NCBI GenBank assembly: GCA_934176955.1
Contig: CAKPOS010000006.1
Span: forward strand, 8,566 to 72,565
Length of the DNA stretch: 64,000 nt
Direction of reading: 5' to 3'
DNA from: an uncultured Bacilli bacterium
Lineage (GTDB): Bacteria > Bacillota_I > Bacilli_A > RF39 > UBA660
The position numbers and the translations under genes were made by a program. This document shows, piece by piece, positions 4,959-53,241 of this stretch; within the stretch, counting starts at the first letter, position 1; every line of letters begins with the position of its first letter. Under the pieces are notes generated by a model. The model had not been told where the DNA came from. It saw only the letters and a list, made by a program, of their open reading frames with translations, and made no database searches.

Positions 4959-5066
4959 AAGCATCCCTCTATTCTTTTTATTCTATTAGTATCATACAAT
5001 AATTTTTTTGTTTTTTCAATCCTTTCAAAAAAATTATTAAATTAATTGAAAGAAGTGTTAACTATT

Positions 5067-5768: not shown

Positions 5769-7635
5769 TATAATTTTTCCTTAAATAAATTGTTAAGATA
5801 GAGATATCTGCTGGATTTACACCACTAATTCTAGATGCTTGACCAATAGAAGTTGGTCTAACTTTTTCTAATTTTTGTCTTGCTTCACTTGCTAAATTTT
5901 TAATTTTACTGTAATCAATATCTATTGGAATTTGTTTTGATTCATTTTTTAACATTTTTTCAGCTTCTCTTTCTACTTTTTTTATATAACCATCATATTT
6001 AATTTGAATTTCTACTTCATTCATTACTTTTTGTGGATAATCTAGTAATAATAGTTTATTTTTTATTAAAAGTTCTATTGTTATTTCTGTTCTTTTTAAT
6101 AGTTCATAGATTGTAATTCCATCCTTTAAAGGAGCAGAATTTAATTTGGTTAAGATATCATTTGTTTCTTTAGAAGGAACTAATTTTATTGTTGCAAGTT
6201 CTTTTTTTAGTTGTTCTATTTGCTGAGAATATTTTAAAAATCTTTGATGTTTATCTTCTTTAATTAATCCTACTTGGTAGCCATATTCTCTTAATCTTAA
6301 GTCTGCATTGTCATGTCTTAATAGGAGACGATATTCTGCTCTTGAAGTTAGCATTCGATAAGGTTCTATTGTTCCTTTTGTTACTAAGTCATCAATTAAA
6401 ACTCCTATGTAGGCTTCATTTCTTTTTAATATTAAAGGAGGATTCCCTTCTACTTTTCTTGAAGCATTGATACCAGCAATAAGTCCTTGGCAGGCAGCTT
6501 CTTCATATCCACTTGTTCCATTGATTTGACCTGCTGTAAATAAATTTTCTAAAATTTTTGTTTCTAAACTTGCATTTATTTGAGTAGGATAGATAGCATC
6601 ATATTCAATTGCATAAGCATATCTCAATATTTTGGCATTTTCTAACCCCTTTAGAGAGTGAACCATTTGTTCTTGAACATCAATAGGCATACTCGTTGAA
6701 AAACCTTGCAAATAAATATCATAATAATATAGGCTTTCTGGTTCTAAAAATAATTGGTGTCTTTCTTTATCTTTAAATCTAGTCACTTTATCTTCAATAG
6801 AAGGACAATATCTTGGACCTACCCCTTTAATATCATTTAATCCTCCATACATGCTAGATTTAGATAAGTTATCTAAAATAATTTTATGGGTCTTCTCATT
6901 GGTATATGTTAAATAGCATGGTTCTTGATTATTTACGTCATAAATAGGGGAGATATCATGAGAAAAAGTATATGGTATTTTATCACCATCTTCTCTTTTA
7001 ATTTTACTGAAATCTATTGAATTTCTTTCAATTCTAGGAGGAGTTCCTGTTTTTAATCTTAGAATTTCAAATCCGTATTTTTTTAAATTATCACTTAAAT
7101 GTAGGGAAGGACTTTCACCATGGGGACCACTTCTTGTTCTCGTTGAACCTCTTAAGATATCCGATTTTAAATAAGTTCCTGTAGTTAAAATAACTGTTTT
7201 TGAAGAAATTTTTGTTCCATCTGCTAAAATTATTCCTTTTACTGATTTACCTTCTATTTTTAAATCTTCTACCATTCCTTCTAATAAATCTAGATTTTCT
7301 TGATTTTTTAAAGTTTTCAACATTTCTTGTGGATAAGTCACTTTATCTGCTTGTGCTCTTAACGAATGAACAGAAGGTCCTTTTGAAGAATTTAACATTT
7401 TCATTTGAATTAATGTTTTATCTGCATTTATCCCCATTTCACCACCTAAAGCATCTATTTCTCTTACAATAATCCCTTTTGCTGAGCCACCTATTGAAGG
7501 ATTGCATGGCATAGTAGCAATATTTTTGATATTTCCTGTTACTAATAGAGTAGAGTGACCAATTCTTGCAGAAGCTAATGCGGCTTCACAACCAGCATGT
7601 CCTCCACCTACTACAATAATCTCATATTCTTTCAT
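5761..7635 (-). CDS. mnmG: tRNA uridine 5-carboxymethylaminomethyl modification enzyme MnmG (GidA)
   Basis: N-terminal FAD motif IVVGGGHAGCEAA. Full-length 624-aa GidA-like sequence. Confidence 0.95.
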   Translation of the reverse strand: MKEYEIIVVGGGHAGCEAALASARIGHSTLLVTGNIKNIATMPCNPSIGGSAKGIIVREIDALGGEMGINADKTLIQMKMLNSSKGPSVHSLRAQADKVTYPQEMLKTLKNQENLDLLEGMVEDLKIEGKSVKGIILADGTKISSKTVILTTGTYLKSDILRGSTRTRSGPHGESPSLHLSDNLKKYGFEILRLKTGTPPRIERNSIDFSKIKREDGDKIPYTFSHDISPIYDVNNQEPCYLTYTNEKTHKIILDNLSKSSMYGGLNDIKGVGPRYCPSIEDKVTRFKDKERHQLFLEPESLYYYDIYLQGFSTSMPIDVQEQMVHSLKGLENAKILRYAYAIEYDAIYPTQINASLETKILENLFTAGQINGTSGYEEAACQGLIAGINASRKVEGNPPLILKRNEAYIGVLIDDLVTKGTIEPYRMLTSRAEYRLLLRHDNADLRLREYGYQVGLIKEDKHQRFLKYSQQIEQLKKELATIKLVPSKETNDILTKLNSAPLKDGITIYELLKRTEITIELLIKNKLLLLDYPQKVMNEVEIQIKYDGYIKKVEREAEKMLKNESKQIPIDIDYSKIKNLASEARQKLEKVRPTSIGQASRISGVNPADISILTIYLRKNYNE

Positions 7636-7644
7636 TTTTCCACC

Positions 7645-8994
7645 TTACTTTCCTAAACAAAATCTTGAGAATAATTCATCTAATAACTCTTCTTTATATG
7701 TTTCTCCTATGATTTCTCCCAATGAATCCCATGCATCTTTAATATTAAATTCAACAATTTCTATTGGCTCTTGGTTATTTATAGAAGTAATTGCATCATT
7801 GATATAAGCTAAAGATTTTTTTAAAAGAGAAATGCTTCTTGCATCGCTTAAGTAAGTTAAATCTTTTGTTTCTAATTCTTCTAAATTAAAAATATCAATG
7901 ATTCTTTGTTTTACTTGCTCTAGTCCCTTTTTGTCTTTGATACTAATTTTTAATAAATTTTTTGGAAGTTCTAATAAGTCTAATTTCTGTTCTAAATCAA
8001 TTTTATTAATTAAAATGATATGTTTTTTTTCTTTTAAAATACTTATCAAGTCTTTGTCTTCTTGTGTTAAAACTTCATTATTATTTAGTATTAATATTAA
8101 TAAATCACATTGATTTATTATTTTTTTGCTTTTTTCTACCCCTATTTTTTCTACTACGTTGTCGGTTTCTCTTATTCCTGCCGTATCAATAAAATTTATA
8201 ACTATTCCTTCTAAAGTAATTTTTCCTTCTACAATATCTCTAGTTGTTCCTTCTATATCTGTTACAATTGCTTTTTCTTCTTCTATTAAAGCGTTTAATA
8301 AACTACTTTTTCCTACATTTGGTCTTCCAATAATCCCTATATTAATTCCTTCATTAATTATTTTTCCATCAGTAGAATTTTTTATTATTTCTTGAATCTT
8401 TTTTCTAAAGTTTAAGAGATTAGGAAGTATTTTTTCAGTCGTTAATTCTTCAATATCTTCATATTCTGGGTAATCAATATTTACTTCAATATGAGAAATT
8501 ATTTCTACTAATTCTTGACGAAGATTTTTTATATCATTTGTAACTTTTCCTGTTAACTGATTCATAGATAATTTTCTTGAAGTCTCTGTTTTGGATGAAA
8601 TTAAGTTCATTATTCCATCAGCTTCTATTAAGTCTATTCTTCCATTTAAAAAAGCCCTTTTAGTAAATTCACCTGGTTCTGCTAATCTGGCTCCATTTAA
8701 AAGTAATAATTCCAAAACTTTATTTGTTGTAGCAATTCCACCATGACTGTTAATTTCCACCACATCTTCTGTTGTAAAAGTCTTGGGAGATAACATAACT
8801 GAAACTAACACTTCATCAATTGCATTTTCTCCTTCCATAATATGACCATAATGAATAGTATGACTTTTGACTTTTGTTAAATCTTTTCCTTTAAAAATTT
8901 TGTTGACTATTTTTACACTATCATCGCCACTAACACGAATAATAGAGATGGCTCCTACCCCTAAAGCAGTAGAAATTGCGGCTATTGTATCCAT
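7645..8994 (-). CDS. mnmE: tRNA modification GTPase MnmE (TrmE)
   Basis: G-domain motifs GRPNVGKSSLLN and DTAGIR. C-terminal FCLGK motif. Confidence 0.95.
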   Translation of the reverse strand: MDTIAAISTALGVGAISIIRVSGDDSVKIVNKIFKGKDLTKVKSHTIHYGHIMEGENAIDEVLVSVMLSPKTFTTEDVVEINSHGGIATTNKVLELLLLNGARLAEPGEFTKRAFLNGRIDLIEADGIMNLISSKTETSRKLSMNQLTGKVTNDIKNLRQELVEIISHIEVNIDYPEYEDIEELTTEKILPNLLNFRKKIQEIIKNSTDGKIINEGINIGIIGRPNVGKSSLLNALIEEEKAIVTDIEGTTRDIVEGKITLEGIVINFIDTAGIRETDNVVEKIGVEKSKKIINQCDLLILILNNNEVLTQEDKDLISILKEKKHIILINKIDLEQKLDLLELPKNLLKISIKDKKGLEQVKQRIIDIFNLEELETKDLTYLSDARSISLLKKSLAYINDAITSINNQEPIEIVEFNIKDAWDSLGEIIGETYKEELLDELFSRFCLGK

Positions 8995-9059: not shown

Positions 9060-9920
9060 TTATTCTTCATATAGCTCTATTTCTCCAGCTTGATAGGCTT
9101 CTAATACTTTATTAGAAATAACTGAATGAATATATCTGGCTTTTTTTGGATGAATTAAATATCTTACTGTTAATTCAATATGATTTTCCACAATTTGTGT
9201 ATAAATAATTGGTTCATATTGATTGTAATAAATTCTATATTCGCTAGTGCTATTATTAATTTGTTTTTTCATTTTAGAAGGAATATTTTTAATCACTTCA
9301 TTTGAATTCACTATTTTATAGATTACTCCTTTTGTTTTTGATAAATTACATTTTAAAGGAACTCTAAAAGTCATTTCATTCCATATATACTTGAATGCTT
9401 TATTATAATTTCTTAATGGGTAATTAAAAATTAAAGAATTCGGTAAATGGGTAATCACTCCTGTACTTTGACCAATAAAATTTTGATTATTTACTTCTAA
9501 TACCTCAAAACTTAATGTATTAATATTGATTACATCACCTTTGTAATTATTAATTTCAATTCTATCTTCGATTTCAAATGGCTTTTTTATTTTAATATAT
9601 ATTCCTGAAAAGAAATTAAAAATTAAATCTCTTAGTGCAATGGTAAAACCTGCAGAAACAAGGCTAATTAGTGTAATAAAACTTTCCAAACATTTTCCCC
9701 ATATTAATATAAAAACTACTAATTTGATAATATTGATTAGTAATTTATATTTTTGAATATATAAATATTCTTTTTTGGAATCCTTTATTTGTTTTAAAAA
9801 CTTTACTCCTATTTTTTTGATAATTGTTAATATAAGAAAAAAAATAAGAGTTTTTATTATTAAAATACAGTATATTTTATCAATACTTGTTAAATGACTA
9901 ATATATTCAACTAATTTCAT
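9060..9920 (-). CDS. MscS-family mechanosensitive channel-like membrane protein
   Basis: N-terminal TM helices followed by a beta-domain (FEIEDRIEINNYKGDVININTLSFEVLE) typical of the small-conductance channel family. Confidence 0.7.
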   Translation of the reverse strand: MKLVEYISHLTSIDKIYCILIIKTLIFFLILTIIKKIGVKFLKQIKDSKKEYLYIQKYKLLINIIKLVVFILIWGKCLESFITLISLVSAGFTIALRDLIFNFFSGIYIKIKKPFEIEDRIEINNYKGDVININTLSFEVLEVNNQNFIGQSTGVITHLPNSLIFNYPLRNYNKAFKYIWNEMTFRVPLKCNLSKTKGVIYKIVNSNEVIKNIPSKMKKQINNSTSEYRIYYNQYEPIIYTQIVENHIELTVRYLIHPKKARYIHSVISNKVLEAYQAGEIELYEE

Positions 9921-12205: not shown

Positions 12206-12378
12206 AGATACACCTCCTAATCAAAAATGCTACTTTATTATATATGTTAAAATTCAATCTGTCAACATGTAAGTTTACAAAAAATTGCTATTTTGGAGGA
12301 GGAATAAGACTTTTTTTAGCTTTTTTCTTATTTTTATGATAGAATATTGTTAAATAATAGATAGTTAGGAGATTGATT

Positions 12379-14133
12379 ATGTTTAAAGAAATTACTGCAA
12401 TTAGTAAAAATTTTGCTTGGGTAAAAATGGACGGAACTACTACTGATGACTTGTTAAATATGAATGTAGTATTTGAAGAAAATGAAAAAAAAATTTTAGG
12501 TGAAGTCGATGAAATTGATAATGGCCAAGTTAAAATTAGTTTTTTAGGAGAATTTATTAATGGCAACTTTCAAGGAGGGATTATTCGAAAACCAAGTTTA
12601 ACTTCAAAAGTAAGAATAATTAACCAGGAAGAATTAGGGGAATTAGTAGGAAGTAATGGAAAAAGAAGTATGATTTTGGGATTATCTCCTTTATATAATG
12701 ATTGTCCAATAAAAATAGATATAGATGATATGTGGAGTAATCATAATGCTTTTTTTGGTAATACTGGTAGTGGAAAAACTTATGGGGTTTCCAGATTTGT
12801 CCAAAATTTATTTAATATGTCAGATAAAATTCCATTTAATAGTAATATTTTTATTTTCAATAATACTGATGAATACGATAATGCATTTAGGAGTATTGGA
12901 AATTATAATATTAATTTTAATTATAAAATGTATTCAATTAGCGGAGAAGGTGGAAACAAAATTCAATTACCTTTATGGCTATTGTCGGTTGATGACTACG
13001 CTAATTTGTTAGATGTTACGGCGTATTCTCAGTTAGCAATTATTGAAAAAATGTTAAGTTTAGTATCTGTCTTTGCAAGAAATGATGAAAATTCTAAAAG
13101 ATACAAGAATCATTTAATTGCGAGTGCTATTGTTTCAGTACTTTACACTAATCAAACTGCTGGTCGAATACGTGATCAAATATTTTCAATTTTAGAAAAT
13201 TGCAATACTGATGAATTAAATCTAAATGTTGACGTTCCAGGGATTGGTTATACTCGTCAGTTTAGAAAATGTTTTGAAATAGATAGTAAGGGAGAATTTG
13301 CAGAAAGAATACTTATAGCAGAATATATCCAGCAATTCATAGATAATAATACGAAATGGAATGAGGATTATGTCCCTATTTATTTTACACTTGATGATTT
13401 AGAAATTGCTTTAAACTTTGCTCTCATCTCTGAAGGATTATTACTAAATGAAAAAACATCATCTGAAGCAATGGCATTAAAAGTTAAGTTACATACAATT
13501 AATAATAGTAGTTATAAAAATTTATTTCATTGTGATAAATTTTGTACTTCATCTGACTTTATTACTAGCATTATCATGATTGGCACTAATAAAAGGGCAC
13601 AAATTATTAATTTTGTATTAGAAGATATTGATGATCGATTTGCCAAAGCAATTGTAAAAGTTTATTGTCGTATTATTTTTAAATTTAGTAAAGGGTTAAG
13701 AGATAGAGGAGCAATGCCTATTCATTTGATGTTAGAAGAAGCACACCGATATGTACAAAAAGATTATGATATAGATATACTGGGATATAATATTTTTGAA
13801 AGAATTGCTAAAGAAGGACGTAAATTTGGAGTAATTATGGACCTTATTACACAACGTCCTACTGAATTAAGTGAAACTGTTATTTCACAATGCACAAATT
13901 TTTTAATTTTTAAAATTACTCATCCAAGTGATTTAGACTATATTAAAAAGATGGTTCCAAATATAAGTAATGATGTAATTGAAAAACAAAAAACTTTACA
14001 AGCTGGTACTTGTGTTGCTTTCGGAAAAATGATGAAAATTCCTATGATTGTAAAAATGCAATTACCTAATCCTGAACCCCATAGTTCTAATGCATCAATA
14101 TTTGATAAGTGGATGATTACAATAAATAAATAG
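12379..14133 (+). CDS. HerA/DUF87-family (FtsK-HerA superfamily) ATPase, no adjacent partner gene
   Basis: N-terminal barrel-like segment, Walker A GNTGSGKTYG and Walker B-like HLMLEEAHRY. EGRKFGVIMDLITQRPTELSETVISQCTNFLIFKITHPSDLDYI is typical of HerA. ATG 12379 lies 6 nt after AGGAGA, and an extended -10 (TGATAGAAT) is upstream. Confidence 0.8.
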   Translation: MFKEITAISKNFAWVKMDGTTTDDLLNMNVVFEENEKKILGEVDEIDNGQVKISFLGEFINGNFQGGIIRKPSLTSKVRIINQEELGELVGSNGKRSMILGLSPLYNDCPIKIDIDDMWSNHNAFFGNTGSGKTYGVSRFVQNLFNMSDKIPFNSNIFIFNNTDEYDNAFRSIGNYNINFNYKMYSISGEGGNKIQLPLWLLSVDDYANLLDVTAYSQLAIIEKMLSLVSVFARNDENSKRYKNHLIASAIVSVLYTNQTAGRIRDQIFSILENCNTDELNLNVDVPGIGYTRQFRKCFEIDSKGEFAERILIAEYIQQFIDNNTKWNEDYVPIYFTLDDLEIALNFALISEGLLLNEKTSSEAMALKVKLHTINNSSYKNLFHCDKFCTSSDFITSIIMIGTNKRAQIINFVLEDIDDRFAKAIVKVYCRIIFKFSKGLRDRGAMPIHLMLEEAHRYVQKDYDIDILGYNIFERIAKEGRKFGVIMDLITQRPTELSETVISQCTNFLIFKITHPSDLDYIKKMVPNISNDVIEKQKTLQAGTCVAFGKMMKIPMIVKMQLPNPEPHSSNASIFDKWMITINK

Positions 14134-14239: not shown

Positions 14240-14486
14240 GAGATATACTATTTATTATTTTTTGATATATTTCTGAAATTGTTTTAAATACTTTAATATT
14301 ATTTTATATTCGTATTACCATTTAAGAAATTATTCATTACTAATACCTCTATTCTTTCAGTTTTAAATTGTTATGTTTTGATTTAAATACTTTTTATTTA
14401 AATTAGGTAGAACAACATATTATAGTAAAATAGGATATTTTTTCTTAATATCTACTAAATGCTAACAAGGAAAATGTTATGATAAC

Positions 14487-14656
14487 TGTGGATTTAATTT
14501 ATTAACAATCCTTATAAATCAAGGTTTTAACACTTTTTCCACAATTATCAACTTTTTTATTTTTTTTCCACAGTAGTATGTTTAAAACTATCTGTGGATA
14601 TTTGTGGAAAAGTTGATAAAAATCAATTAAAGTAAAGGTTTTGTTCCTGTGGATAA
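14487..14656. promoter_or_regulatory. oriC part 1: cluster of six DnaA boxes upstream of dnaA
   Basis: The boxes are TGTGGATTT 14487, TTTTCCACA 14535, TTTTCCACA 14564, TGTGGATAT 14593, TGTGGAAAA 14603 and TGTGGATAA 14648 (perfect). Consensus is TTATCCACA or its complement. Confidence 0.8.
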
Positions 14657-14753
14657 CTTCAAAATAACATAGTTTTTTGTTACTTAGTAATAAATTTATA
14701 GAAAAAAAATAAGATTTATGTTAATATTGTTAGTGAACGTGGGAGGGATTAGA

Positions 14754-16157
14754 ATGGACATTGATGATTTATGGAAAAATTTTCTAGAGATAATAAAAAA
14801 TAGTATTTCGTCTTTATCGTATCAAACTTGGTTTTATGGTACAAAACTAGTATCTATTTCTAATAATACTGCTATTATTATTGTTCCAATGCCTGTTCAC
14901 AAAAAGCATTTGATGGAAAATTATCTAGATGTTATTGAAGATAAATTTAAACAGTTGACCGGTACAGTTTTTGAATTTGAATTCATGTTAGAAGAAGAGT
15001 GGGAACAAAACAAAAATAGTTTTATAACTAATGATGGTTATGATAAAGCAGTAGAGGAGAAGGAGAGCAATCCCCAAAATAGTATAGAAATTTCACCTAA
15101 AAGCTTTGAAGATGCTAATTTAAATGAAAATTATAACTTTGATAATTTTATTGTTGGAAATTCTAATCGTTTTGCTTTTACTGCATCTATGGCTGTTGCT
15201 GAAAAACCAGGGAAAGCATATAATCCTTTATTTTTGTATGGAAAAAGTGGTTTAGGAAAAACACATTTAATGCATTCGATTGGTAACTATATACTGAAAC
15301 ATACTAATTTGAGAGTTTTATATATATCTAGTGATAAATTTGTTAATGATTTTATTAATGCTGTTAGAAATAATGATAAAAATAACTTTAAAAAAATAGA
15401 TAATTTTAAAGCTAAATATAGAAATATTGATGTTTTAATGATTGATGATATACAATTTTTAGGAAATGCAACTAAAGGACAAGAAGAATTTTTTCATACT
15501 TTTAATGAGCTTTACAATGAGAATAAGCAAATAATTATTGCTTCTGATCGTTCTGTTGATGACTTGAAAATGTTAGAAAATAGGTTGCTTACTAGATTTA
15601 ATTGGGGATTAACAGCTAATATTACTCCTCCTGATTTTGAGTTAAGAATGAATATTTTAGAAAGAAAGATAGCCCACCAAGAATCAGCTAAAGATGTTCC
15701 TAAAGAAGTTATTGAATATATAGCTAACAATTTTGCTTCTGATATTAGACAATTAGAAGGCGCAATAACTAGAGTTTTTGCTTATGCATTAATGATGAAT
15801 AAGGGGATTGTTGATTTAGATACTGCTGTTGATGCGTTAAAAGATCAACTTACAGATAGAAGTGTTTATAAAAATGACGTTCATAGAATTCAAACTGTAG
15901 TTTGCGACTACTTTAAAATTACTTTAGAAGATATAAAAGGGAAAAAAAGGAGTCAAAATATCAATTATCCTAGACAAGTTGCTATTTATCTCTGTAGAAC
16001 ATTAGCCAATGAATCTTTTCCTAAAATTGGAACTTATTTTGGAGGAAGAGATCATTCAACAATTATGAGCTCATATCAAAAAATTCAAAAAGAATTACTA
16101 GTGAATGAACAACTAAAAATAGTAATTAAAGAATTAAAACAACAATTATCCCCATAA
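14754..16157 (+). CDS. dnaA: chromosomal replication initiator DnaA
   Basis: AAA+ motifs GKSGLGKTHL and IDDIQFL, plus a C-terminal DnaA-box-binding domain. ATG 14754 follows GGGAGGG (the track ORF begins earlier, at 14718). Confidence 0.95.
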   Translation: MDIDDLWKNFLEIIKNSISSLSYQTWFYGTKLVSISNNTAIIIVPMPVHKKHLMENYLDVIEDKFKQLTGTVFEFEFMLEEEWEQNKNSFITNDGYDKAVEEKESNPQNSIEISPKSFEDANLNENYNFDNFIVGNSNRFAFTASMAVAEKPGKAYNPLFLYGKSGLGKTHLMHSIGNYILKHTNLRVLYISSDKFVNDFINAVRNNDKNNFKKIDNFKAKYRNIDVLMIDDIQFLGNATKGQEEFFHTFNELYNENKQIIIASDRSVDDLKMLENRLLTRFNWGLTANITPPDFELRMNILERKIAHQESAKDVPKEVIEYIANNFASDIRQLEGAITRVFAYALMMNKGIVDLDTAVDALKDQLTDRSVYKNDVHRIQTVVCDYFKITLEDIKGKKRSQNINYPRQVAIYLCRTLANESFPKIGTYFGGRDHSTIMSSYQKIQKELLVNEQLKIVIKELKQQLSP

Positions 16158-16168
16158 TTGGGGAATAT

Positions 16169-16258
16169 TGTGGATAAGTATTTTCTTTTCAACAAATAAT
16201 GTGGAAAAAAAAACACTTATCCAAAAAGGAAAAAATATAGTTTTCCACAGTTTCCACA
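16169..16258. promoter_or_regulatory. oriC part 2: five DnaA boxes between dnaA and dnaN, followed by an AT-rich stretch
   Basis: The boxes are TGTGGATAA 16169 (perfect), TGTGGAAAA 16200, TTATCCAAA 16217, TTTTCCACA 16241 and GTTTCCACA 16250. ATTATAATAAATAATATAATTAAAG then precedes the dnaN RBS. Confidence 0.8.
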
Positions 16259-16297
16259 TTATAATAAATAATATAATTAAAGAAAGAAGGAAGAAAA

Positions 16298-17413
16298 ATG
16301 AAATTTATTATTAAACAAGAAATATTATTAGAAAGTTTATATCATACTTCAAGAGCAATTTCTCCAAGAAATTTAATTCCAATATTAACTGGGATTAAAT
16401 TTGATTTACAAAAAGAAGGGTTGTATTTATCTGCTAGTGATACTGATATTTCTATTCAGTGTTTGATTCCAACAGAAAATATTGTTGAAGTTGTTGAATA
16501 TGGTAGTGTTGTTATAGGAGGAAAGTACATAGTAGAAATTATAAAAAAATTACCAAATACAAATATTACTATAGAAGTTATGGATGAAAATAAGATGATT
16601 ATTAGTACTAATAATACCGAATTTAATTTAAATGGTATTAATTCTAATGAGTTCCCTAATTTAGATTTAGAGGGTACTAGTGAACCAATAGTTTTAAAAA
16701 CAAATATATTGAAGAAAGTTATTTCTCAGACTTTTTTTGCCACTTCTCGTAATGAGTCACGTCCTATTTTAACAGGAATGAATTTTAGAATAGATGGTTC
16801 TATAATGGAAGTTATTTCTACTGATTCTTATCGTTTAGCAAAAAAGATTATTCTTTTAGATAAAAATTTAGACTATAAAGTAAATATTGTAATACCTGGA
16901 AAAAATTTATTAGAATTAGATAAGATTATGAGTGAGGATGAGGAAAATTTAGAATTACACATTTTTGAAAATAAGGTATTATTTAAATATAAAAATATTT
17001 TATTTTTATCTCGTTTATTGAATGGTACATATCCTGCTACTTCTTCTATTATTCCTACAGATTTTAAAGTTCAAGTAAAATGTAGCTGTAATGGTTTATT
17101 TGAAATGATTGATAGAGCCTCTTTATTAACTTCTGATCGTGATAAAAATATTATTCGGTTGGAATTGTCTCATCAAGATATGATTATTTCTTCGAATTCT
17201 CCAGAGATAGGAAAAGTGGAAGAGAAGATGGTTGTAGATAGTAATGACGAAATTTCTATATCTTTTAGCTCAAAATATATGTTAGATAGTATAAAAAGTT
17301 TTGAAACGAATGATGTAATGCTTTGTATGAATAATGATAATAGTCCAATTATTATAAAATCTGATGAAGATGATTCATTAATACAATTGGTTTTGCCAAT
17401 TAAGACATATTAA
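16298..17413 (+). CDS. dnaN: DNA polymerase III beta sliding clamp
   Basis: 371-aa three-domain clamp-like sequence in the conserved position after dnaA. Confidence 0.95.
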   Translation: MKFIIKQEILLESLYHTSRAISPRNLIPILTGIKFDLQKEGLYLSASDTDISIQCLIPTENIVEVVEYGSVVIGGKYIVEIIKKLPNTNITIEVMDENKMIISTNNTEFNLNGINSNEFPNLDLEGTSEPIVLKTNILKKVISQTFFATSRNESRPILTGMNFRIDGSIMEVISTDSYRLAKKIILLDKNLDYKVNIVIPGKNLLELDKIMSEDEENLELHIFENKVLFKYKNILFLSRLLNGTYPATSSIIPTDFKVQVKCSCNGLFEMIDRASLLTSDRDKNIIRLELSHQDMIISSNSPEIGKVEEKMVVDSNDEISISFSSKYMLDSIKSFETNDVMLCMNNDNSPIIIKSDEDDSLIQLVLPIKTY

Positions 17414-17517
17414 TTTTGGTATAATTAAATGGCAAAAAGAAGGTTTTCAACTTTTATAAATATTTTAAAAGCAGCAAAAACTATGAATTTTCTAAAAATT
17501 TCGTTTTTTTGTTATAT

Positions 17518-17544
17518 TTCGACAATTTTCGACAAATTTCGACA
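17518..17544 (+). promoter_or_regulatory. three tandem consensus Spo0A (0A) boxes at 10-bp phasing
   Basis: TTCGACA at 17518-17524, 17528-17534 and 17538-17544 is the reverse complement of TGTCGAA (0A box TGNCGAA). They lie 60-90 bp upstream of the comK start. Confidence 0.6.
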
Positions 17545-17567
17545 TTGTTTTATGTTTTAATGAATAT

Positions 17568-17588
17568 GGTTTTCATTTATTGAAAACC
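17568..17588 (+). promoter_or_regulatory. perfect 8-bp-arm palindrome abutting the comK RBS (operator or leader hairpin)
   Basis: GGTTTTCA-TTTAT-TGAAAACC ends 1 nt before the GAGGGGGGG Shine-Dalgarno. No T-run follows. Confidence 0.4.
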
Positions 17589-17605
17589 AGAGGGGGGGAA
17601 TTTGT

Positions 17606-18094
17606 ATGTTAGAAAATTATGAAATTAATGATGAAACTTTAGCAATTGTTCCATATGATTTTGGAAAATCCAAAGTTTATGAGTATGATGAGGAATTTAT
17701 AGTTAATATGATTCCTTTAACAATTATTAAAAATAGTTGTTTATTTTTCGGTTCATCATTTGAAGGAAGGAGAGATGCATCTAAAAATATTATTGGGGTT
17801 GATATGAAAGTTCCAATTCTTATAGAGGAAAGCAGAAATATTATATTTTTTCCTGTTTCCAGTTGTATTAATAAAAATAGCATTTGGATATCTTATCAAA
17901 ATTTATTAAAATACTCTAAAAGTAGTTTGAGTACTTCCAATTTATATTTTAAAAATAAGAAAAATCTTCAATTACCTGTTAAGTATAATTTAATTGATAA
18001 TCAAGTTATTCGTTGTATTAAATTAGATACTCTTTTGCTTAAAAGAAAAAAGTTTATTAAAACTGCTGTTACTGATGTTGAAGTAGAAATGTAA
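17606..18094 (+). CDS. comK: competence transcription factor ComK
   Basis: Aligns along its length with B. subtilis ComK. Examples: YEINDETLAIVP vs YEVNGATIAVLP, VNMIPLTIIKNSCLFFGSSFEGRR vs VNMKPLQIVDRSCRFFGSSYAGRK, IIFFPVSS...IWISY vs IFLFPTLS...GWISH, and LQLPVKYNLIDNQV vs MELPISYNSFENQV. Confidence 0.85.
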   Translation: MLENYEINDETLAIVPYDFGKSKVYEYDEEFIVNMIPLTIIKNSCLFFGSSFEGRRDASKNIIGVDMKVPILIEESRNIIFFPVSSCINKNSIWISYQNLLKYSKSSLSTSNLYFKNKKNLQLPVKYNLIDNQVIRCIKLDTLLLKRKKFIKTAVTDVEVEM

Positions 18095-18441
18095 AAGATT
18101 ATTCAATGAATTATTTTAACTATAAAAATGTCTTTAAAGTTTCATAGATTTATAAAATATGTTTATTTTATTTTTCATTTGTTAAGATATTTTTTATAAT
18201 TTAACAGTTAGGCTTTCATGAGTTTATTTCATGATAGCTTTTTTTTGTTATCAATATTATTGAAAAAAAGGTTAGTAAATAAAGAAATGTGTAAGTATTT
18301 TATTCTTTTTTTCAAAATTGTAGTCAAAAAAGAAAAAAGTTTTGAAAGACTCTTATAAATTATTGTATTTTGTGTTATAATTTTATTGTATAGAATTTTT
18401 GGTAGGTTTGGTGAAAAAAATGGATTCGTTTAGATTTTATT

Positions 18442-21478
<3,037 letters not shown>

Positions 21479-23937: not shown

Positions 23938-23951
23938 TTTAAGTCATTCTA

Positions 23952-23985
23952 TGTTCCACGTGAAACATAGAATGACTTTTCCACA
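23952..23985 (+). promoter_or_regulatory. parS site 1 plus adjacent DnaA box, embedded in a 38-bp palindrome (23941-23978) right after gyrA
   Basis: TGTTCCACGTGAAACA (23952-23967), then 9 nt, then TTTTCCACA (23977-23985). The palindrome AAGTCATTCTATGTT/AACATAGAATGACTT can also serve as the gyrA terminator. Confidence 0.8.
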
Positions 23986-24010
23986 TATATATTAATAAGT
24001 AAAATATTTT

Positions 24011-24035
24011 GACTTTATATTAAAGTCTTTTTTTT
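24011..24035 (+). terminator. intrinsic terminator
   Basis: GACTTTA-TAT-TAAAGTC followed by T8. Confidence 0.6.
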
Positions 24036-24454
24036 ATCAACTTAATTTAATATATATTAGGGTACTATATTCTAAATATTTTTTATGTAAAGAGTAATTT
24101 TTTTTATATAAAATAGATTTATCAACATAAAAATAAAGAATTTAATAATATACAAATATTAAAATAAGATAAGTTTTAAGTCTGTAAAAGTAAAGAAATA
24201 AACGACATAGCAATGATATTACGTTATCGTATTCTTTCAATTGAAGATAAGTAAATTCGTTATTTTATGTTGTTATGATTGAAAAAACTAATTTGAATTG
24301 GAAATATATGAATATATAGAATTAATTAAGAGAAAAAATAGTTTTAGACAAGTAGATCTATTATAAATAGCAGAAATAATGTATTTAAAGATAGATTTTT
24401 GTAGTACTTTTTATAATTTTTGAGTAATGTTAAAATTTTTGTTTAAATCAATAA

Positions 24455-24487
24455 TGTTTCACGTGAAACATAAAATAAATTTCCACA
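24455..24487 (+). promoter_or_regulatory. parS site 2 plus adjacent DnaA box
   Basis: TGTTTCACGTGAAACA (perfect palindrome, 24455-24470), then 8 nt, then ATTTCCACA (24479-24487). Confidence 0.8.
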
Positions 24488-25101
24488 GTAGATATAAATT
24501 CATCTTTTTTTGTAATAATTGTATATATATATTTAAATTTGTTATGAATTAATTTTTCTTTTATGTCATTATATTTTCTTAGTTTAGTTAATATAAAAAA
24601 AATAATTTTATGTTATAAAGAAAGATGGAAATATAAATAAATAACTGATGAAATGTTTTTTGAATCTTATAATTGGGAAGTATTTTATCATTTATAAGTT
24701 TGAAGGTAAAAATAAGTATTTTTGGCTGATGAGAAAGAAGGCAGTATATAAATAATTAATTATCTAAGTAATTAGCATAAAGTAGGATTTATTTATGAGT
24801 GAAAGAAAAAAATCTTTAAAGATTAGTTTGAAAATTGTATTTTAAGCTGCAATTAGAACATTAATCTTTATAGAATTTAAAGAAATTTTCGGCAAGTTAG
24901 ATATTTTTCTATAAATAAAAAATCTAATAATAATATCAACATGTTTAAAGAATATAAATTTGTAATATACAAACGAGAAAAATTCTAAAAATAATTTTTT
25001 TACATTCTTATAGATATCTATATTATTTTTTTGTTTATTAAACTTTATAATTTATTTGTTTTTTTAGAGAATTTTTGAACAATTAAATTTGTACATTTTT
25101 A

Positions 25102-25131
25102 TGTTTCACGTGGAACATAAAGTTATCCACA
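25102..25131 (+). promoter_or_regulatory. parS site 3 plus adjacent perfect DnaA box
   Basis: TGTTTCACGTGGAACA (25102-25117), then 5 nt, then TTATCCACA (25123-25131). Confidence 0.85.
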
Positions 25132-25154
25132 GTACTTTAATTTTTAATATAATA

Positions 25155-25187
25155 TGTTTCACGTGGAACATATTAATATTTTCCACA
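25155..25187 (+). promoter_or_regulatory. parS site 4 plus adjacent DnaA box
   Basis: TGTTTCACGTGGAACA (25155-25170), then 8 nt, then TTTTCCACA (25179-25187). Confidence 0.8.
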
Positions 25188-25373
25188 AGCAACTAAATTT
25201 ATTACATGTAGTTTAGTAATTGGGGAAAATTGGTTAATAACATTGGCATAGTAGGTCAAGTTCGTTAGAAATCAAGGAAAAAAGTATACCAAAATTCATA
25301 GATGACATTGAAATTGTTTGATTAAGGTCATACAAGATACTCCGTGTTTCTGTGTTGCGGAGAGGTTCATTTT

Positions 25374-25405
25374 AAAAAGCTAACGCTCAATTAGCTTTTT
25401 TATTT
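25374..25405. terminator. bidirectional intrinsic terminator with no annotated gene on either side
   Basis: AAAAAGCTAA-CGCTCA-ATTAGCTTTTTT, with an A-run before and a T-run after. Confidence 0.6.
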
Positions 25406-25457
25406 TGTGTGAAATTTATTTTTGAAACTAATAACATGATTTGTAGAAAACGACAAA

Positions 25458-25653
25458 AGTTACAGTTCAGTCAGATAAAATAAGTGTTTAAATGATATTT
25501 TTTTATAAAAAATACTAAAATAGTCTTATTTTACTAATAAATTGTGTGAAATTTTATCCATTTATCATTATTTTGTTTATTAAAATTTTTACGAACTTCT
25601 TTATTTATATTTGGTTAGAGCTGTTTTATATTTTTCTTGACTGAACTGTAACT
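25458..25653. mobile_element. MITE-like element: 16-bp perfect terminal inverted repeats, ~164-bp AT-rich core, flanking 6-bp direct repeat
   Basis: AGTTACAGTTCAGTCA (25458-25473) and TGACTGAACTGTAACT (25638-25653) are exact reverse complements. GACAAA lies immediately outside both ends (25452-25457 and 25654-25659). There is no ORF inside. Confidence 0.45.
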
Positions 25654-25682
25654 GACAAAAAAATTAAAATGGTAAGATCATA

Positions 25683-25711
25683 TTGATTTTTCTTTTTTTT
25701 TGTTTTATAAT
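25683..25711 (+). promoter_or_regulatory. sigma-A-type promoter of the SRP RNA
   Basis: TTGATT (25683-25688), 17 nt, TATAAT (25706-25711). The predicted start G at 25718 coincides with the first base of the SRP hairpin. Confidence 0.55.
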
Positions 25712-25717
25712 TATTTT

Positions 25718-25797
25718 GATGCAATAGTATTTATTTGGAATTAAGTCAGGATTGGAAAATAGCAGCTTTAACAGATTTTACTATGTGCATCTTTTTT
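25718..25797 (+). ncRNA. ffs: small (4.5S-type) signal recognition particle RNA
   Basis: Single hairpin GAUGCAAUAGUA...UACUAUGUGCAUC. Its apex GUCAGGAUU-GGAA-AAUAGCAGC matches the domain IV consensus GUCAGGUCC-GGAA-GGAAGCAGC (GGAA tetraloop, symmetric-loop UCAGG/AGCAG). A U-run follows. The position immediately upstream of dnaX matches scr-dnaX in B. subtilis. Confidence 0.7.
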
Positions 25798-42968: not shown

Positions 42969-43072
42969 TTTTATCACCATTCTTAATATGGTTATTTTTT
43001 GAATTTTTATCCTTAATCTTAGTATAAAGATTTTAAATATTGGTAAAATATTTATAGAATGGAGTGAAATTT

Positions 43073-43606
43073 ATGAAAACGACAGGGATTATTAGAAGAA
43101 TTGATGATTTGGGAAGAATTGTTATTCCTAAGGAATTGAGAAAATCACTTCGTATTAAGAATGGGGATTCATTAGAAATTTTCGTTGATCAAGAGGATAT
43201 TGTTTTAAAAAAGTATTCTCCAATGGAGAGTATTGAAGAAGCGGCGATGAAATATGTAGATAGTTTTAATCAAGTAATTAAACATAATGTAATTGTAACA
43301 GATAAAGATAAAGTAATTGCTGTTTCAGGTATGTTAAAAAAGAAGTATTTGGGTAAAAAAATAACCGAATTTACTGAGAGAGGTATTGAACGAAGAGATA
43401 GTTTTGTGGAAAGGCAGAAAAAATTATTTTCTTTTGTTGAAGGTGTGGAAGAATTAGGTTATTATTCTTTTAGTTCAATTGTTTCGGATAGTGATACGAT
43501 TGGAAGTGTAATTATTATTTCTGTTGATAGTCCTATTTTGGAGAGTGATGAAAAATTAGCGGTTATTTTAGCTAAATTGTTATCGGGAAAATTTTTAGAA
43601 AATTAA
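43073..43606 (+). CDS. spoVT: stage V sporulation protein T (AbrB-family regulator with GAF-like C-domain)
   Basis: MKTTGIIRRIDDLGRIVIPKELRKSLRIKNGDSLEIF aligns with B. subtilis SpoVT MKATGIVRRIDDLGRVVIPKEIRRTLRIREGDPLEIF. Confidence 0.85.
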   Translation: MKTTGIIRRIDDLGRIVIPKELRKSLRIKNGDSLEIFVDQEDIVLKKYSPMESIEEAAMKYVDSFNQVIKHNVIVTDKDKVIAVSGMLKKKYLGKKITEFTERGIERRDSFVERQKKLFSFVEGVEELGYYSFSSIVSDSDTIGSVIIISVDSPILESDEKLAVILAKLLSGKFLEN

Positions 43607-46156: not shown

Positions 46157-46520
46157 ACTTAGATAGAGAGTACTTGGCATATTACTCATTTAAAACTTGT
46201 ACTTCTAGATGAAAGAGAAGTATATTGATTGAATGACTAAAATAATATCTAAAAAATATTTTGTTAAGTTAACTTTCTTTGTTTGGTAGAAAAGATATAA
46301 GTATGTCTTTGTTCTTATCGCCACTAAGTGAGACGCGCGTTTTGAGAAAGATAAACTCGAAAGGATAAGAAGTTGAGATAGGCACTGATAATGTCTATTA
46401 AATGGGGGAATAGTATATAGGTTATGTTAGATAATTCTATATATTATTGATGTAATTCCAATTCAACCTTTTCTTAAACTAGAAATGAATCAATGTTATC
46501 AGTATTGATTCATTTTTTTT
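46157..46520 (+). ncRNA. unclassified structured RNA candidate (~364 nt) with its own promoter and terminator
   Basis: No ORF over 21 codons. Multiple hairpins include a small three-way junction closed by CUUAUC/GAUAAG (46312-46370) containing the GC-rich GAGACGCGCG. Ends at a strong terminator, and a separate metG promoter follows. Confidence 0.4.
46487..46520 (+). terminator. intrinsic terminator
   Basis: GAATCAAT-N9-ATTGATTC followed by T8. Confidence 0.7.
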
Positions 46521-48321: not shown

Positions 48322-48549
48322 AAATAATTTGGAAAAATATGAATAAAGTAGTTTTATACTTTATCAGTATTTTTTGTTTATGATAATTATTCGACAAATA
48401 TTTCTTTTGAAAAGTGTTATTATTGATTTACAACATAAATGTGTAAATTTTTACGAAACACTTTTCTTTTATTTACATTAAAATATTGGTTTGCTATGAT
48501 TGATGTAGTAGTTAAGCAGTTTAGTAGTTTAAGAAAGGAACGAAAAAGA

Positions 48550-48717
48550 ATGCTTAATAAAATTAAAAATCAAGAAAATATAATGATGATATTTTTTGTA
48601 GTAACACTATTGTTTGTTGGAATTTATGCTGTTGTAAATCAAAATGTAATGGATGCTATTTACTTTTTTGTATTGTTGTATTATTTTTTTAGATTTTTAA
48701 TGATTCGTAGGAAGTAG
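48550..48717 (+). CDS. possible small membrane protein (55 aa)
   Basis: ATG 48550 after AAAGGAA. MLNKIKNQENIMMIFFVVTLLFVGIYAVVNQNVMDAIYFFVLLYYFFRFLMIRRK has two hydrophobic helices. The track ORF starts earlier, at 48439. Confidence 0.4.
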   Translation: MLNKIKNQENIMMIFFVVTLLFVGIYAVVNQNVMDAIYFFVLLYYFFRFLMIRRK

Positions 48718-51121: not shown

Positions 51122-51232
51122 AATACTTATTTTTACTTTGATTTCTGTTAAAGAAGTTTAATAAAGATAAGTATTTTTTGTTTGTGTTGTTCTTTTTTTG
51201 ATTATTATTCATATAGTTAGATGGGTGGTTTT

Positions 51233-51997
51233 ATGATTAGAATCGGGGATTTTGTTACGAGAAAGTCTTATGGGAATGATATTGTATTTAAGGTTGTTGG
51301 AATTGAAGGAAACAATTGTTTTTTGTATGGAAGCTGTATTCGATTGTCTGCGGATAGTCCTCTTCAAGATTTGGTTTTGTATGATAAAGAAATTGATGAT
51401 GATTTTGGTAGTGATTTTAGTGAGTATAAATCTCTTGATCGCCATGAATACTTTTATCTTCCTGGGAAAGTACTTCATATTGATGGGGATTCGGAATTTT
51501 TGTCTAAGTGTATGAATTTTTATAAAAGGAATCGGATTAAAGCTTATGGAGTTTTTTGTTCGGAGAGTGAGTTATCTTCGAAGATTGTTTCTTTTTTGGA
51601 AAAGTATAATCCTGATATTGTAGTGATTACTGGTCATGATTCAATGTACAAAAGAGAGAGAGCTAATGGAAATTATAAGAATACGACAAATTTTGTTGAG
51701 GCAATTCATGAGGCTAGAAAGTATGAAAAATCTCATGAGAAGTTACTGATTATAGCAGGTGCATGCCAATCTAATTATGAGGAATTGATTAAAGCGGGAG
51801 CTAATTTTGCTTCTAGTCCTAAAAGAATTAATATTCATGCATTAGATCCTGCTATTGTTGCTAGTTCTTTAGCTTTATCAGATAAAAATAATAATATTGA
51901 TTTAATTCATATTTTAGAGAAAACGAAATATGGGGCTGATGGAATGGGAGGTATTATTACTAAGGGTACAATGTATGTTGGTTATCCTAGAGAATAG
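51233..51997 (+). CDS. yabG: sporulation-specific peptidase YabG
   Basis: MIRIGDFVTRKSYGNDIVFKV... is a typical YabG N-terminus. Conserved rsmA-yabG-veg order. Confidence 0.85.
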   Translation: MIRIGDFVTRKSYGNDIVFKVVGIEGNNCFLYGSCIRLSADSPLQDLVLYDKEIDDDFGSDFSEYKSLDRHEYFYLPGKVLHIDGDSEFLSKCMNFYKRNRIKAYGVFCSESELSSKIVSFLEKYNPDIVVITGHDSMYKRERANGNYKNTTNFVEAIHEARKYEKSHEKLLIIAGACQSNYEELIKAGANFASSPKRINIHALDPAIVASSLALSDKNNNIDLIHILEKTKYGADGMGGIITKGTMYVGYPRE

Positions 51998-52578: not shown

Positions 52579-52669
52579 AAAATCTTAGGAGACTACTGAT
52601 ATATTTAGTAGTTTCTTTTTTTTGTCATTATTTTTTATTATTAGCATATATCTTATTAGGAGGTACTTT

Positions 52670-52963
52670 ATGGACAAGGTAAAAGAAATGGAGTCTAGTT
52701 TTAATCATGGAATATCGATTGCTGAGAGAAAGAATGTTTTGGTTACAGGGGTAAAGAAGATTGAGAGTTTTGATAAGGAGGAGTTTTTGATGGATACTAC
52801 TTTAGGATTTTTAAGTATTAAAGGAAATGGGTTAGAGATTATAAAGTTGGATACTTATCAAGGAAATGTTACAATTAAGGGAACTGTTGATAGTATTAAT
52901 TATACGGCTAGTGATAACAAAAAGAAATCAGAGGAAAGTTTCCTTTCTAAGTTATTTAAGTAA
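52670..52963 (+). CDS. yabP: sporulation protein YabP
   Basis: VLVTGVKKIESFDKEEFLMDTTLGFLSIKGNGLEI aligns with B. subtilis YabP. ATG 52670 after AGGAGG. Confidence 0.8.
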   Translation: MDKVKEMESSFNHGISIAERKNVLVTGVKKIESFDKEEFLMDTTLGFLSIKGNGLEIIKLDTYQGNVTIKGTVDSINYTASDNKKKSEESFLSKLFK

Positions 52964-53241
52964 TGATTTTAAAGGTGCAGATTATTTCTTTATTATTTTC
53001 TTTTTGTTATGGAATCTTTTTTTATTTATTGTTAGAGTTAAATTCTAAATTTTTATATTCTTCTCATATTATAGTTAGGATAGTAGTTTCTTTTTTGTTT
53101 GTAATGTTTCATACTTTATTATATTTTTTGGTTTTAATGAGAATTAATTATGGTTATCTTCATTTTTATTTCTTTTTATGTATTATTTTGGGGTATATTT
53201 TGTGTAAAGTGGTAATGAAAAAAATTGTAAAGAAGCAATGA
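52963..53241 (+). CDS. yabQ: spore cortex biosynthesis membrane protein YabQ
   Basis: 92-aa multi-TM protein overlapping the yabP stop, in the conserved yabP-yabQ-divIC order. Confidence 0.65.
   Translation: MILKVQIISLLFSFCYGIFFYLLLELNSKFLYSSHIIVRIVVSFLFVMFHTLLYFLVLMRINYGYLHFYFFLCIILGYILCKVVMKKIVKKQ

Follow-up and report, generated by a model that had tools for sequence, protein, structure and literature searches.

In Bacillus subtilis, the gene for the competence master regulator ComK is expressed from a crowded promoter (PcomK) that is bound directly by the phosphorylated form of Spo0A (Spo0A~P), at activating sites and also at operator sites that mediate repression (PMC3297582). Besides these separate and weak Spo0A sites, PcomK includes a K-box and is a target of Rok, CodY, AbrB and DegU, and the Spo0A link ties competence to the output of the phosphorelay that governs sporulation (PMC3297582). 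The sequence recognised by Spo0A, the 0A box TGTCGAA, is contacted at bases G2, C4 and G5, a specificity that Bacillus and Clostridioides share (PMC3485338), and two boxes separated by 3 bp constitute a footprinted Spo0A binding unit (PMC2731898). Here, we describe a comK gene located between dnaN and recF, next to the replication origin, in a stretch of 64,000 nt (the window) from an uncultured Bacilli bacterium (RF39; UBA660), which corresponds to positions 8,566-72,565 of contig CAKPOS010000006.1 of assembly GCA_934176955.1. This gene, which is fixed at the dnaN-recF position in RF39-type gut Bacilli, is preceded by three phased 0A-type boxes joined to an extended -10 element and by a leader hairpin, and on sequence grounds these parts form a genuine module. 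The most likely mechanism, to which we give a probability of about 0.6, is that comK would be driven by an activator-type sigma-A promoter under the control of Spo0A~P. The RF39-type Bacilli, whose genomes are small, are uncultured bacteria that abound in the gut.

The comK gene and its conserved position

The ORF (open reading frame) of 162 residues that follows dnaN is, by sequence similarity, a member of the ComK family. The Pfam model for ComK (PF06338) matches it with 140.3 bits against a cut-off of 22.3, aligning residues 3-148 with positions 2-151 of the 152 in the model, and over residues 1-147/149 the product shows 37-42% identity with the ComK proteins of Bacillus, Cytobacillus and Mesobacillus species (28 Bacillaceae genomes); both results agree with the end-to-end alignment to ComK that a previous sequence-only reading of this DNA had proposed. 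NCBIfam offered no model for this product. In total, 266 homologs were found, and an alignment of 27 sequences showed 40 invariant columns. The most similar ComK proteins were found in gut metagenomes of humans and animals, and the closest genomes are metagenome-assembled genomes labelled only as "uncultured Bacilli bacterium"; the G+C content of the window itself is approx. 26%. Syntenic genera of this kind are filed by NCBI under Bacilli incertae sedis, and one syntenic relative, Candidatus Faecimonas (L051; L numbers are the labels of the 204 comparison loci that were retrieved), belongs to the GTDB order RF39, family CAG-611 (PMC8035907). No late com genes were present among the window genes annotated by Pfam, a set in which several small ORFs had no match and from which some ORFs were left out of the scan.

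The gene order on the plus strand is dnaA (14718-16157), dnaN, comK, recF, gyrB and gyrA. Synteny was evaluated in the best 80 comK loci of GTDB contigs, with one genome per species, and the exact order dnaA-dnaN-comK-recF-gyrB was found in 52 of them, even though the identity of DnaA to that of the window goes from 92% down to 42% and that of dnaN ranges from 42 to 94% across these loci. The other 28 loci all belong to Bacillaceae (Bacillus, Cytobacillus, Mesobacillus, Peribacillus, Neobacillus and others), and in these comK lies away from dnaN. Hence, the location of comK between dnaN and recF, already noticed in the sequence-only reading, is conserved across a deep uncultured clade of low-GC gut Bacilli. 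A literature search combining comK, dnaN and recF found no description of such an arrangement. In B. subtilis recF is flanked by the small genes yaaA and remB. In the window there is no ORF of at least 50 residues between dnaN and recF other than comK, and therefore no yaaA, so that comK does occupy the yaaA slot, as had been suggested; likewise, recF overlaps gyrB, which leaves no place for remB.

A phased array of 0A-type boxes and an extended -10 element

The three copies of TTCGACA upstream of comK, at an exact spacing of 10 bp (17518, 17528 and 17538), were correctly recognised in the sequence-only reading. Each of these heptamers is exactly complementary to the 0A box, and the boxes are separated by spacers of 3 bp. 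Single copies of TTCGACA are not unusual in the window (8 versus 3.2 expected); nevertheless, a phased pair or triple occurs at only one place in the 64 kb. In shuffled sequences the pattern CGACA-N5-CGACA appeared with a mean of 0.02 and the triple built on GACA-N6 did not appear (0), and no second copy of the array was found in the window or within ±10 kb flanks of the 52 relatives. One of the single copies (48390-48396) is located 43 nt upstream of an ORF for a hydrophobic protein of 92 residues (48439-48717), between metG and tatD, and it is probably an isolated box that arose by chance.

For the comparison of promoters, the 52 distinct dnaN-comK spacers were aligned on the promoter-proximal box (box 3). 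Two to three phased boxes were present in 50 of these 52 spacers, which answers in the affirmative the question, raised with the initial reading, of whether the repeats are conserved in relatives; in the other two (L006 and L037) boxes are visible by eye. The layout shared by the 50 promoters consists of (A/T)AATTCGACA repeated two or three times with a period of 10 bp, followed after 8-9 nt by TGnTTTAAT or TGnTAnnAT, and then by a short leader and AGGGGG. Every one of the 50 anchored promoters has the TG 8 nt downstream of box 3, except that in five loci the distance is 9 nt. Across these, the column counts were T38 T30 C26 G31 A39 C37 A45 for box 1, T34 T34 C32 G37 A41 C44 A39 for box 2, and T40 T41 C37 G43 A50 C50 A47 for box 3, so that TTCGACA is the column consensus of all three; box 3 is apparently the best kept, though the alignment was anchored on it. 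Some lineages show partial arrays: in the Candidatus Onthousia sub-clade and its relatives the middle box has decayed, with boxes 1 and 3 still 20 bp apart, and in another sub-clade boxes 2 and 3 alone are left.

In the window, TTTAAT (17556-17561) was taken as the -10 hexamer and the transcription start was placed at approx. 17568; the positions of the boxes are counted from this predicted start. A -35 hexamer at 17±1 bp is not conserved in the window and the aligned relatives. The recurrence of this layout in around 50 related genomes argues for a real switch, and, judged by its sequence, the combination of array and -10 element is a conserved cis-element rather than a product of chance. A sigma-H promoter was also considered and discarded, given that GAAT at 17562-17565 is not kept in the relatives and that there is no AGGA -35 element.

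The motif AAAA-N5-TTTT noted upstream of the boxes in the sequence-only reading is indeed present at the position given for it, but it does not qualify as a ComK box: no second motif accompanies it at a spacing of 8, 18 or 31 bp, the window holds 36 copies of it, and it is not conserved in the relatives. No K-box, i.e., two AAAA-N5-TTTT motifs separated by 8, 18 or 31 bp, was found in the window, where the sole relaxed match needs two mismatches. This weighs against an autoregulation of the Bacillus type, not against the assignment of the protein to the ComK family.

Spo0A as the candidate regulator

From the identity of the heptamer and the 3-bp spacing of the boxes, Spo0A appears as the best candidate to bind the array. 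The specificity of this protein, conserved between Bacillus and Clostridioides, also fits a motif that stayed unchanged while ComK drifted to approx. 40% identity. The distribution of the array outside the syntenic loci was evaluated by an exact-match scan for the triple array in metagenome contigs of the Joint Genome Institute (JGI), which retrieved at least 120 loci. Among the metagenome matches listed, the array precedes nine further comK genes, on contigs of 21-29% G+C, and around 24 matches are satellite-like repeats. Two unrelated GC-rich contigs from the human gut, L089 (boxes at 1031-1057) and L198 (boxes at 6139-6165), also carry three phased TGTCGAA boxes, in this case upstream of spo0A at a distance of approx. 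140 bp; L198 has a second copy of the array near 773-799, and its box sequence is common to L098, L130, L155 and L156. These two arrays are probably, on the basis of their sequence and location, Spo0A autoregulation arrays. In addition, the triple array precedes spoVS (L122), genes for small soluble histidine kinases of the orphan type (L112, L194 and L131) and parA/soj (L092). The contigs with spo0A and other sporulation genes are GC-rich (approx. 0.5-0.64), and are for this reason unlikely to come from Bacilli that encode ComK; a regulator shared across spore-forming Firmicutes fits this distribution better than one specific for ComK.

The scan also produced other kinds of matches. In L138 and L102, two low-GC loci, the full layout of the comK type (three boxes, 8-9 nt, TGnTAnnAT and an AGGGGG/AGGAGG Shine-Dalgarno sequence) is found in front of ORFs that are not ComK, of which that of L138 starts 42 nt after the boxes. 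Neither of these ORFs had a match in Pfam, and we take them to resemble nucleases of the PD-(D/E)XK type. In environmental contigs such as L095, L099, L106, L111, L134, L167 and others, GGTTCGACAT units followed by GAGCTCACCAACC units form satellite-like arrays, which are unrelated to promoters.

The proposed switch would operate as follows. The stand-alone comK gene between dnaN and recF has an extended -10 element, no usable -35 element and three putative Spo0A boxes that face the same side of the helix. Nutrient limitation would raise the level of Spo0A~P, which would bind the array cooperatively in head-to-tail units, in the manner known for a pair of boxes with a 3-bp spacer. The -35-like hexamer TCGACA, located 21 bp from the -10 element, is overlapped by box 2, and the binding of Spo0A~P would switch the transcription of comK, most probably on. 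The transcript would start at approx. 17568, directly with the 9-bp hairpin, which would probably protect its 5' end, and the hairpin would be followed by a very strong Shine-Dalgarno sequence; from this strength, much ComK would be expected per transcript. Four elements of this scheme are inferred from sequence: the identity of the binding protein (Spo0A), the point at which transcription starts, the sign of the regulation and the role of the hairpin.

The leader hairpin and the Shine-Dalgarno sequence

The sequence-only reading had described a palindrome that abuts the ribosome binding site. The perfect 8-bp palindrome GGTTTTCA-N5-TGAAAACC (17568-17588) is indeed located directly before the Shine-Dalgarno sequence, and extends to a 9-bp stem; however, it behaves as an RNA hairpin and not as a conserved operator. 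A hairpin with z < -2 is present at the same place in 32 of 50 relatives, with stems of unrelated sequence, and the AGGGGG of the Shine-Dalgarno sequence is kept in all the relatives. These statistics were obtained from folds of each sequence versus its shuffles. None of the nine pairs is lost among the four closest sequences, which show GG..CC, AA..TT, GA..TC and a GA..TT version that includes G.U; two compensatory changes were counted. A structure that is kept while its sequence varies argues for RNA rather than for a protein operator, and hence the palindrome most likely represents a 5'-terminal mRNA hairpin. For 11 leaders aligned with MAFFT, RNAalifold returned no consensus structure, as would be expected of stems that are too different to align. 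A role as terminator in the sense direction was discarded because no T-run follows the hairpin. A 5'-terminal stem-loop together with a strong Shine-Dalgarno sequence is a classic stabiliser of Gram-positive mRNAs, as in the aprE leader and ermC, and by analogy the hairpin has a probable role as a stabiliser of this type. Two points count against the hairpin: two sub-clades with shorter leaders are devoid of it, and the covariation seen among the four sequences that could be aligned does not by itself reach significance, since 67 of 500 shuffles equal it.

Alternative explanations

The array could be the target of a different regulator of direct repeats phased at 10 bp, either a response regulator of the OmpR/PhoB type, belonging to a two-component system that senses competence signals, or the diverged ComK of this clade itself. 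Phased direct repeats that replace a -35 element are typical of winged-helix response regulators, and the array would suit them. ComK, for its part, is autoregulated in B. subtilis (PMC3297582), and here there is no canonical K-box, so that any autoregulation of comK must use other sequences. On the other hand, the heptamer is an exact 0A box and corresponds to no other known consensus, and TTCGACA remains constant across lineages in which ComK diverged to approx. 40% identity. The array is likewise absent from the rest of the window and from the flanks of the relatives, and it precedes spo0A, spoVS and kinase genes in gut contigs of 0.5-0.64 G+C that carry sporulation genes. To our knowledge, ComK is a family restricted to Bacilli (the GC-rich contigs with the array were not searched for ComK), and since these contigs are unlikely to derive from Bacilli with ComK, binding of ComK to the TTCGACA array is unlikely; for a response regulator other than Spo0A there is nothing specific in its favour. 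For these reasons we consider a regulator different from Spo0A improbable. The boxes could also be read as variants of the DnaA box (TTTTCGACA versus TTWTNCACA), by which DnaA would couple comK to the status of replication. They differ from the relaxed consensus by only one mismatch, they lie close to a cluster of DnaA boxes (see below), and several relatives carry TTCCACA-N3-TTCCACA tandems upstream of dnaA (L001 at ~7010, L005 at ~7033, L008 at ~6839, and others) that show the same 10-bp phasing and differ in one base. Nevertheless, the genuine DnaA boxes of the window are canonical TTATCCACA or TTTTCCACA (27 versus 11 expected), and the discriminating base of the comK boxes is G in 43, 37 and 31 of the 50 promoters. 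The C needed at position 6 to read (A/T)TTTCGACA as a DnaA box is found in just 0, 3 and 3 of 50, and so this assignment was rejected. The retention of G and the near absence of C suggest that selection avoids the DnaA-box form, and a control by DnaA seems to us very improbable.

Even with Spo0A as the binder, its effect could be the opposite of the one proposed: the extended -10 promoter would be constitutive during growth, and the occupancy of the region from -50 to -24 by Spo0A~P would silence comK upon commitment to sporulation. The boxes do overlap the core promoter, with the proximal one (-30/-24) as the best conserved, and the known repression sites of Spo0A, such as that of the A2c promoter of phages Nf and phi29, overlap core promoters (PMC2731898); PcomK of B. 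subtilis also carries repressing Spo0A operators in addition to the activating sites (PMC3297582). However, no -35 element is conserved at 17±1 bp, as is typically the case for promoters that depend on an activator, and it would be unusual for a master regulator to be expressed by default. Moreover, the -35-like TCGACA at 21 bp from the -10 element recalls the Spo0A-activated promoters of spoIIG and spoIIE. In these two promoters a -35-like hexamer is located too far (21-22 bp) from the -10 element, with boxes at around -40 and -50. Pure repression is thus doubtful though it deserves to be considered, and we estimate that activation is about twice as probable; by analogy with B. subtilis, a dose-dependent mixture is possible, in which low levels of Spo0A~P would turn comK on and high levels would turn it off. 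Regarding the leader, the palindrome could be the DNA operator of a dimeric repressor, given that a perfect 8-bp inverted repeat between the -10 element and the Shine-Dalgarno sequence has the classic position of an operator, and that its TTTTCA/TGAAAA half-sites are similar to those of the CodY box. Against this, the stems of the relatives at the same place are unrelated (AATTTCTTT, ACATTC, CACATCA, GAAAGC, AAAGCAA and others), and one close relative pairs only through G.U, which is relevant to RNA and not to DNA. An operator is for these reasons quite unlikely.

Several observations weigh against the activation of comK by Spo0A~P. Some of the triple-array matches lie in satellite repeats or on unassigned contigs with a high G+C content (0.66-0.68), and the TTCGACA array by itself is not diagnostic of Spo0A. 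The spo0A gene is not in the 64 kb window, and when an approximate B. subtilis Spo0A sequence was used as the probe in a tblastn search of the 204 loci, spo0A was found only in L089 and L198. As for the direction of the control, box 3 is placed within the core promoter, a position commoner for repression, and the extended -10 promoter may fire without an activator, in which case the array could be an off-switch.

The transcription unit and the replication origin

According to the sequence-only reading, comK was embedded in an origin operon. This claim turned out to be overstated: comK has its own extended -10 element and is followed by a terminator-like hairpin (18211-18247), and most relatives have an obvious hairpin terminator after dnaN. 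In addition, TGTGTTATAAT at 18371-18381 is likely the own promoter of recF. In the window the dnaN-comK spacer shows only a weak A/U-rich structure, and for this reason some read-through into comK is possible. Having a promoter and a terminator of its own, comK would best be described, on sequence, as a resident of the origin gene cluster that is not demonstrably a member of an operon. In several relatives (L016, L040 and L044 at ~9870-9900, and L051 at ~7830-7880) the terminator after dnaN is a palindrome made of two DnaA boxes, e.g., ATATCCACAATTTTTGTGGATAT.

The change of sign of the GC skew near 12 kb of the window, together with the clusters of canonical DnaA boxes, identifies this region as the replication origin (oriC). 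The comK boxes are approx. 1.27 kb from the DnaA-box cluster located between dnaA and dnaN. It had been suggested that the boxes might also affect the initiation of replication; there is no evidence for this. Their fixed distance to the -10 element of comK explains them fully, and the bolder version, in which a consensus array beside oriC also helps Spo0A to restrain initiation, finds no support. A different idea is that the location at the origin, kept across the clade at approx. 1.3 kb or less from oriC, is functional in itself and that competence in these Bacilli with reduced genomes, through a minimal promoter and no ComK autoregulation, would be an AND-gate of replication stress and Spo0A~P. 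We regard this as unlikely; if it were true, an origin-locked comK would read the status of replication, as copy number or as continued initiation under fork arrest, and the array would read starvation.

Some other features of the origin region are worth mentioning. A gene for a DUF87/HerA-like ATPase (12373-14133, plus strand), which outside the window is limited to the closest family (14 related loci, 80-95% identity), is located between rpmH and dnaA, beside the upstream DnaA-box cluster. After gyrA there is a stretch of approx. 1.8 kb (23938-25714) with a G+C content of around 0.20 and without any ORF longer than 41 residues, in which no tRNA, rRNA or Rfam match was found; this AT-rich stretch contains DnaA boxes at 23977, 25123 and 25179, and in L001 the gap between gyrA and dnaX likewise has no called gene. 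A small signal recognition particle RNA (25715-25797, plus strand) is encoded immediately before dnaX. A protein of 491 residues, with ParB_N as its only domain, is encoded next to rsmG (3489-4964, minus strand), and a regular parA-parB pair (58948-60613, plus strand) is located approx. 45 kb away, on the opposite side of oriC. Finally, a PGK RNA motif (Rfam RF03040, 56 bits) was detected at 46307-46398 (plus strand), upstream of the gene for methionyl-tRNA synthetase.

Sporulation genes

Judging from Pfam matches, the organism of the window keeps the sporulation-signature genes spoVT, yabG, yabP and yabQ (Table 1), a further point in favour of Spo0A as the candidate binder of the array. In the relatives, yabP and yabQ were found within 10 kb only in L019 and L032, too few loci for a correlation of presence and absence. 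Previous work predicted that RF39, two RFN20 families and many members of ML615J-28 are still spore-forming (PMC10868615). According to the same study, spo0A is an absolute requirement for sporulation that was lost in two RFN20 families, and it was reported in the RFN20 families CAG-631 and CAG-449 (PMC10868615).

Table 1. Location of the features in the window; promoter and leader elements are predictions.
Feature	Position	Strand	Remarks
DnaA-box cluster upstream of dnaA (oriC part 1)	14470..14660		TTATCCACA and TTTTCCACA at 14535, 14564, 14603, 14648
DnaA-box cluster between dnaA and dnaN (oriC part 2)	16165..16260		Boxes at 16169, 16200, 16241
dnaN (DNA polymerase III beta clamp), upstream neighbour	16298..17413	+	L001 ortholog has Pfam DNA_pol3_beta domains
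AAAA-N5-TTTT, chance AT-box	17495..17507		36 copies in the window; not kept in relatives
0A-type box 1 (TGTCGAA on minus)	17518..17524	-	Exact; approx. -50 to -44
0A-type box 2	17528..17534	-	Exact; approx. -40 to -34; TCGACA is the -35-like hexamer 21 bp from the -10
0A-type box 3	17538..17544	-	Exact; approx. -30 to -24
Putative extended -10 TGTTTTAAT (TG-n-TTTAAT)	17553..17561	+	Fixed distance from box 3 in relatives; read from sequence
Hairpin, 9-bp stem and 5-nt loop	17567..17589	+	Begins at about the predicted +1 (17568); minimum free energy -10.6 kcal/mol, z -4.8
Shine-Dalgarno GAGGGGGGG, strong	17590..17598	+	Directly after the stem; 7 nt before ATG 17606
comK coding sequence	17606..18094	+	162 residues; Pfam PF06338, E 5.4e-41
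Terminator-like hairpin and T-run after comK	18211..18247	+	GGCTTTCATGA-loop-TCATGATAGCT then TTTTTTTT
recF, downstream neighbour	18442..19572	+	ORF and synteny
spoVT homolog	43064..43606	+	Pfam SpoVT_C, E 8e-23; AbrB/MazE-type N-terminal domain
yabG	51221..51997	+	Pfam Peptidase_U57, E 8e-87
yabP	52622..52963	+	Pfam YabP, E 7e-18
yabQ	52963..53241	+	Pfam Spore_YabQ, E 1.5e-6

Comparison with known systems

The leader of comK resembles the Gram-positive 5' stabilisers (the aprE leader and ermC) in having a hairpin a few nucleotides from the predicted 5' end and a strong Shine-Dalgarno sequence; in contrast, two sub-clades of this group have no hairpin. The promoter is similar to those of spoIIG and spoIIE in the 0A boxes placed over a -35-like hexamer that is too far from the -10 element. 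It differs from them in the extra proximal box at -30/-24 and the extended -10 element, and in that the controlled gene is one of competence and not an operon for a sporulation sigma factor. The spo0A contigs L089 and L198 have the same three TGTCGAA boxes with a 10-bp period; however, unlike those of comK, they precede the start codon by approx. 140 bp and point the other way with respect to the gene. A phased array of 0A boxes fused to an extended -10 element may provide a sequence signature for Spo0A regulons in metagenomes. The proposal also makes a prediction that can be tested: Spo0A DNA-binding domains taken from model species are expected to recognise the array, and a B. subtilis reporter to respond to it.

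With regard to its location, comK of the window is similar to comCDE of Streptococcus pneumoniae, a locus for the control of competence that also lies beside oriC, although the pneumococcal regulators, ComCDE and ComX, are unrelated to ComK. For comCDE, it has been proposed that gene dosage during replication stress serves as an input, a model disputed in the same paper (PMC8394987). The conserved position of comK at the side of oriC invites a comparison with this origin-proximal locus, a feature not shared by comK of B. subtilis, which is not at the origin.

The closest described system is comK of B. subtilis, in which a master regulator of the ComK family is also expressed from a promoter with several Spo0A sites (Mirouze et al. 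2012, PMC3297582). The link between Spo0A and comK is therefore already known, and the arrangement described here is a variant of it and no new kind of system. Unlike in PcomK, what is conserved in these gut Bacilli is only three phased consensus boxes fused to an extended -10 element, with no K-box. Such a minimal promoter, maintained across the clade, predicts that competence hangs directly on the master regulator of sporulation, and in this sense the comK promoter of these Bacilli may be regarded as a natural 'stripped-down' counterpart of the intricate comK switch of B. subtilis.

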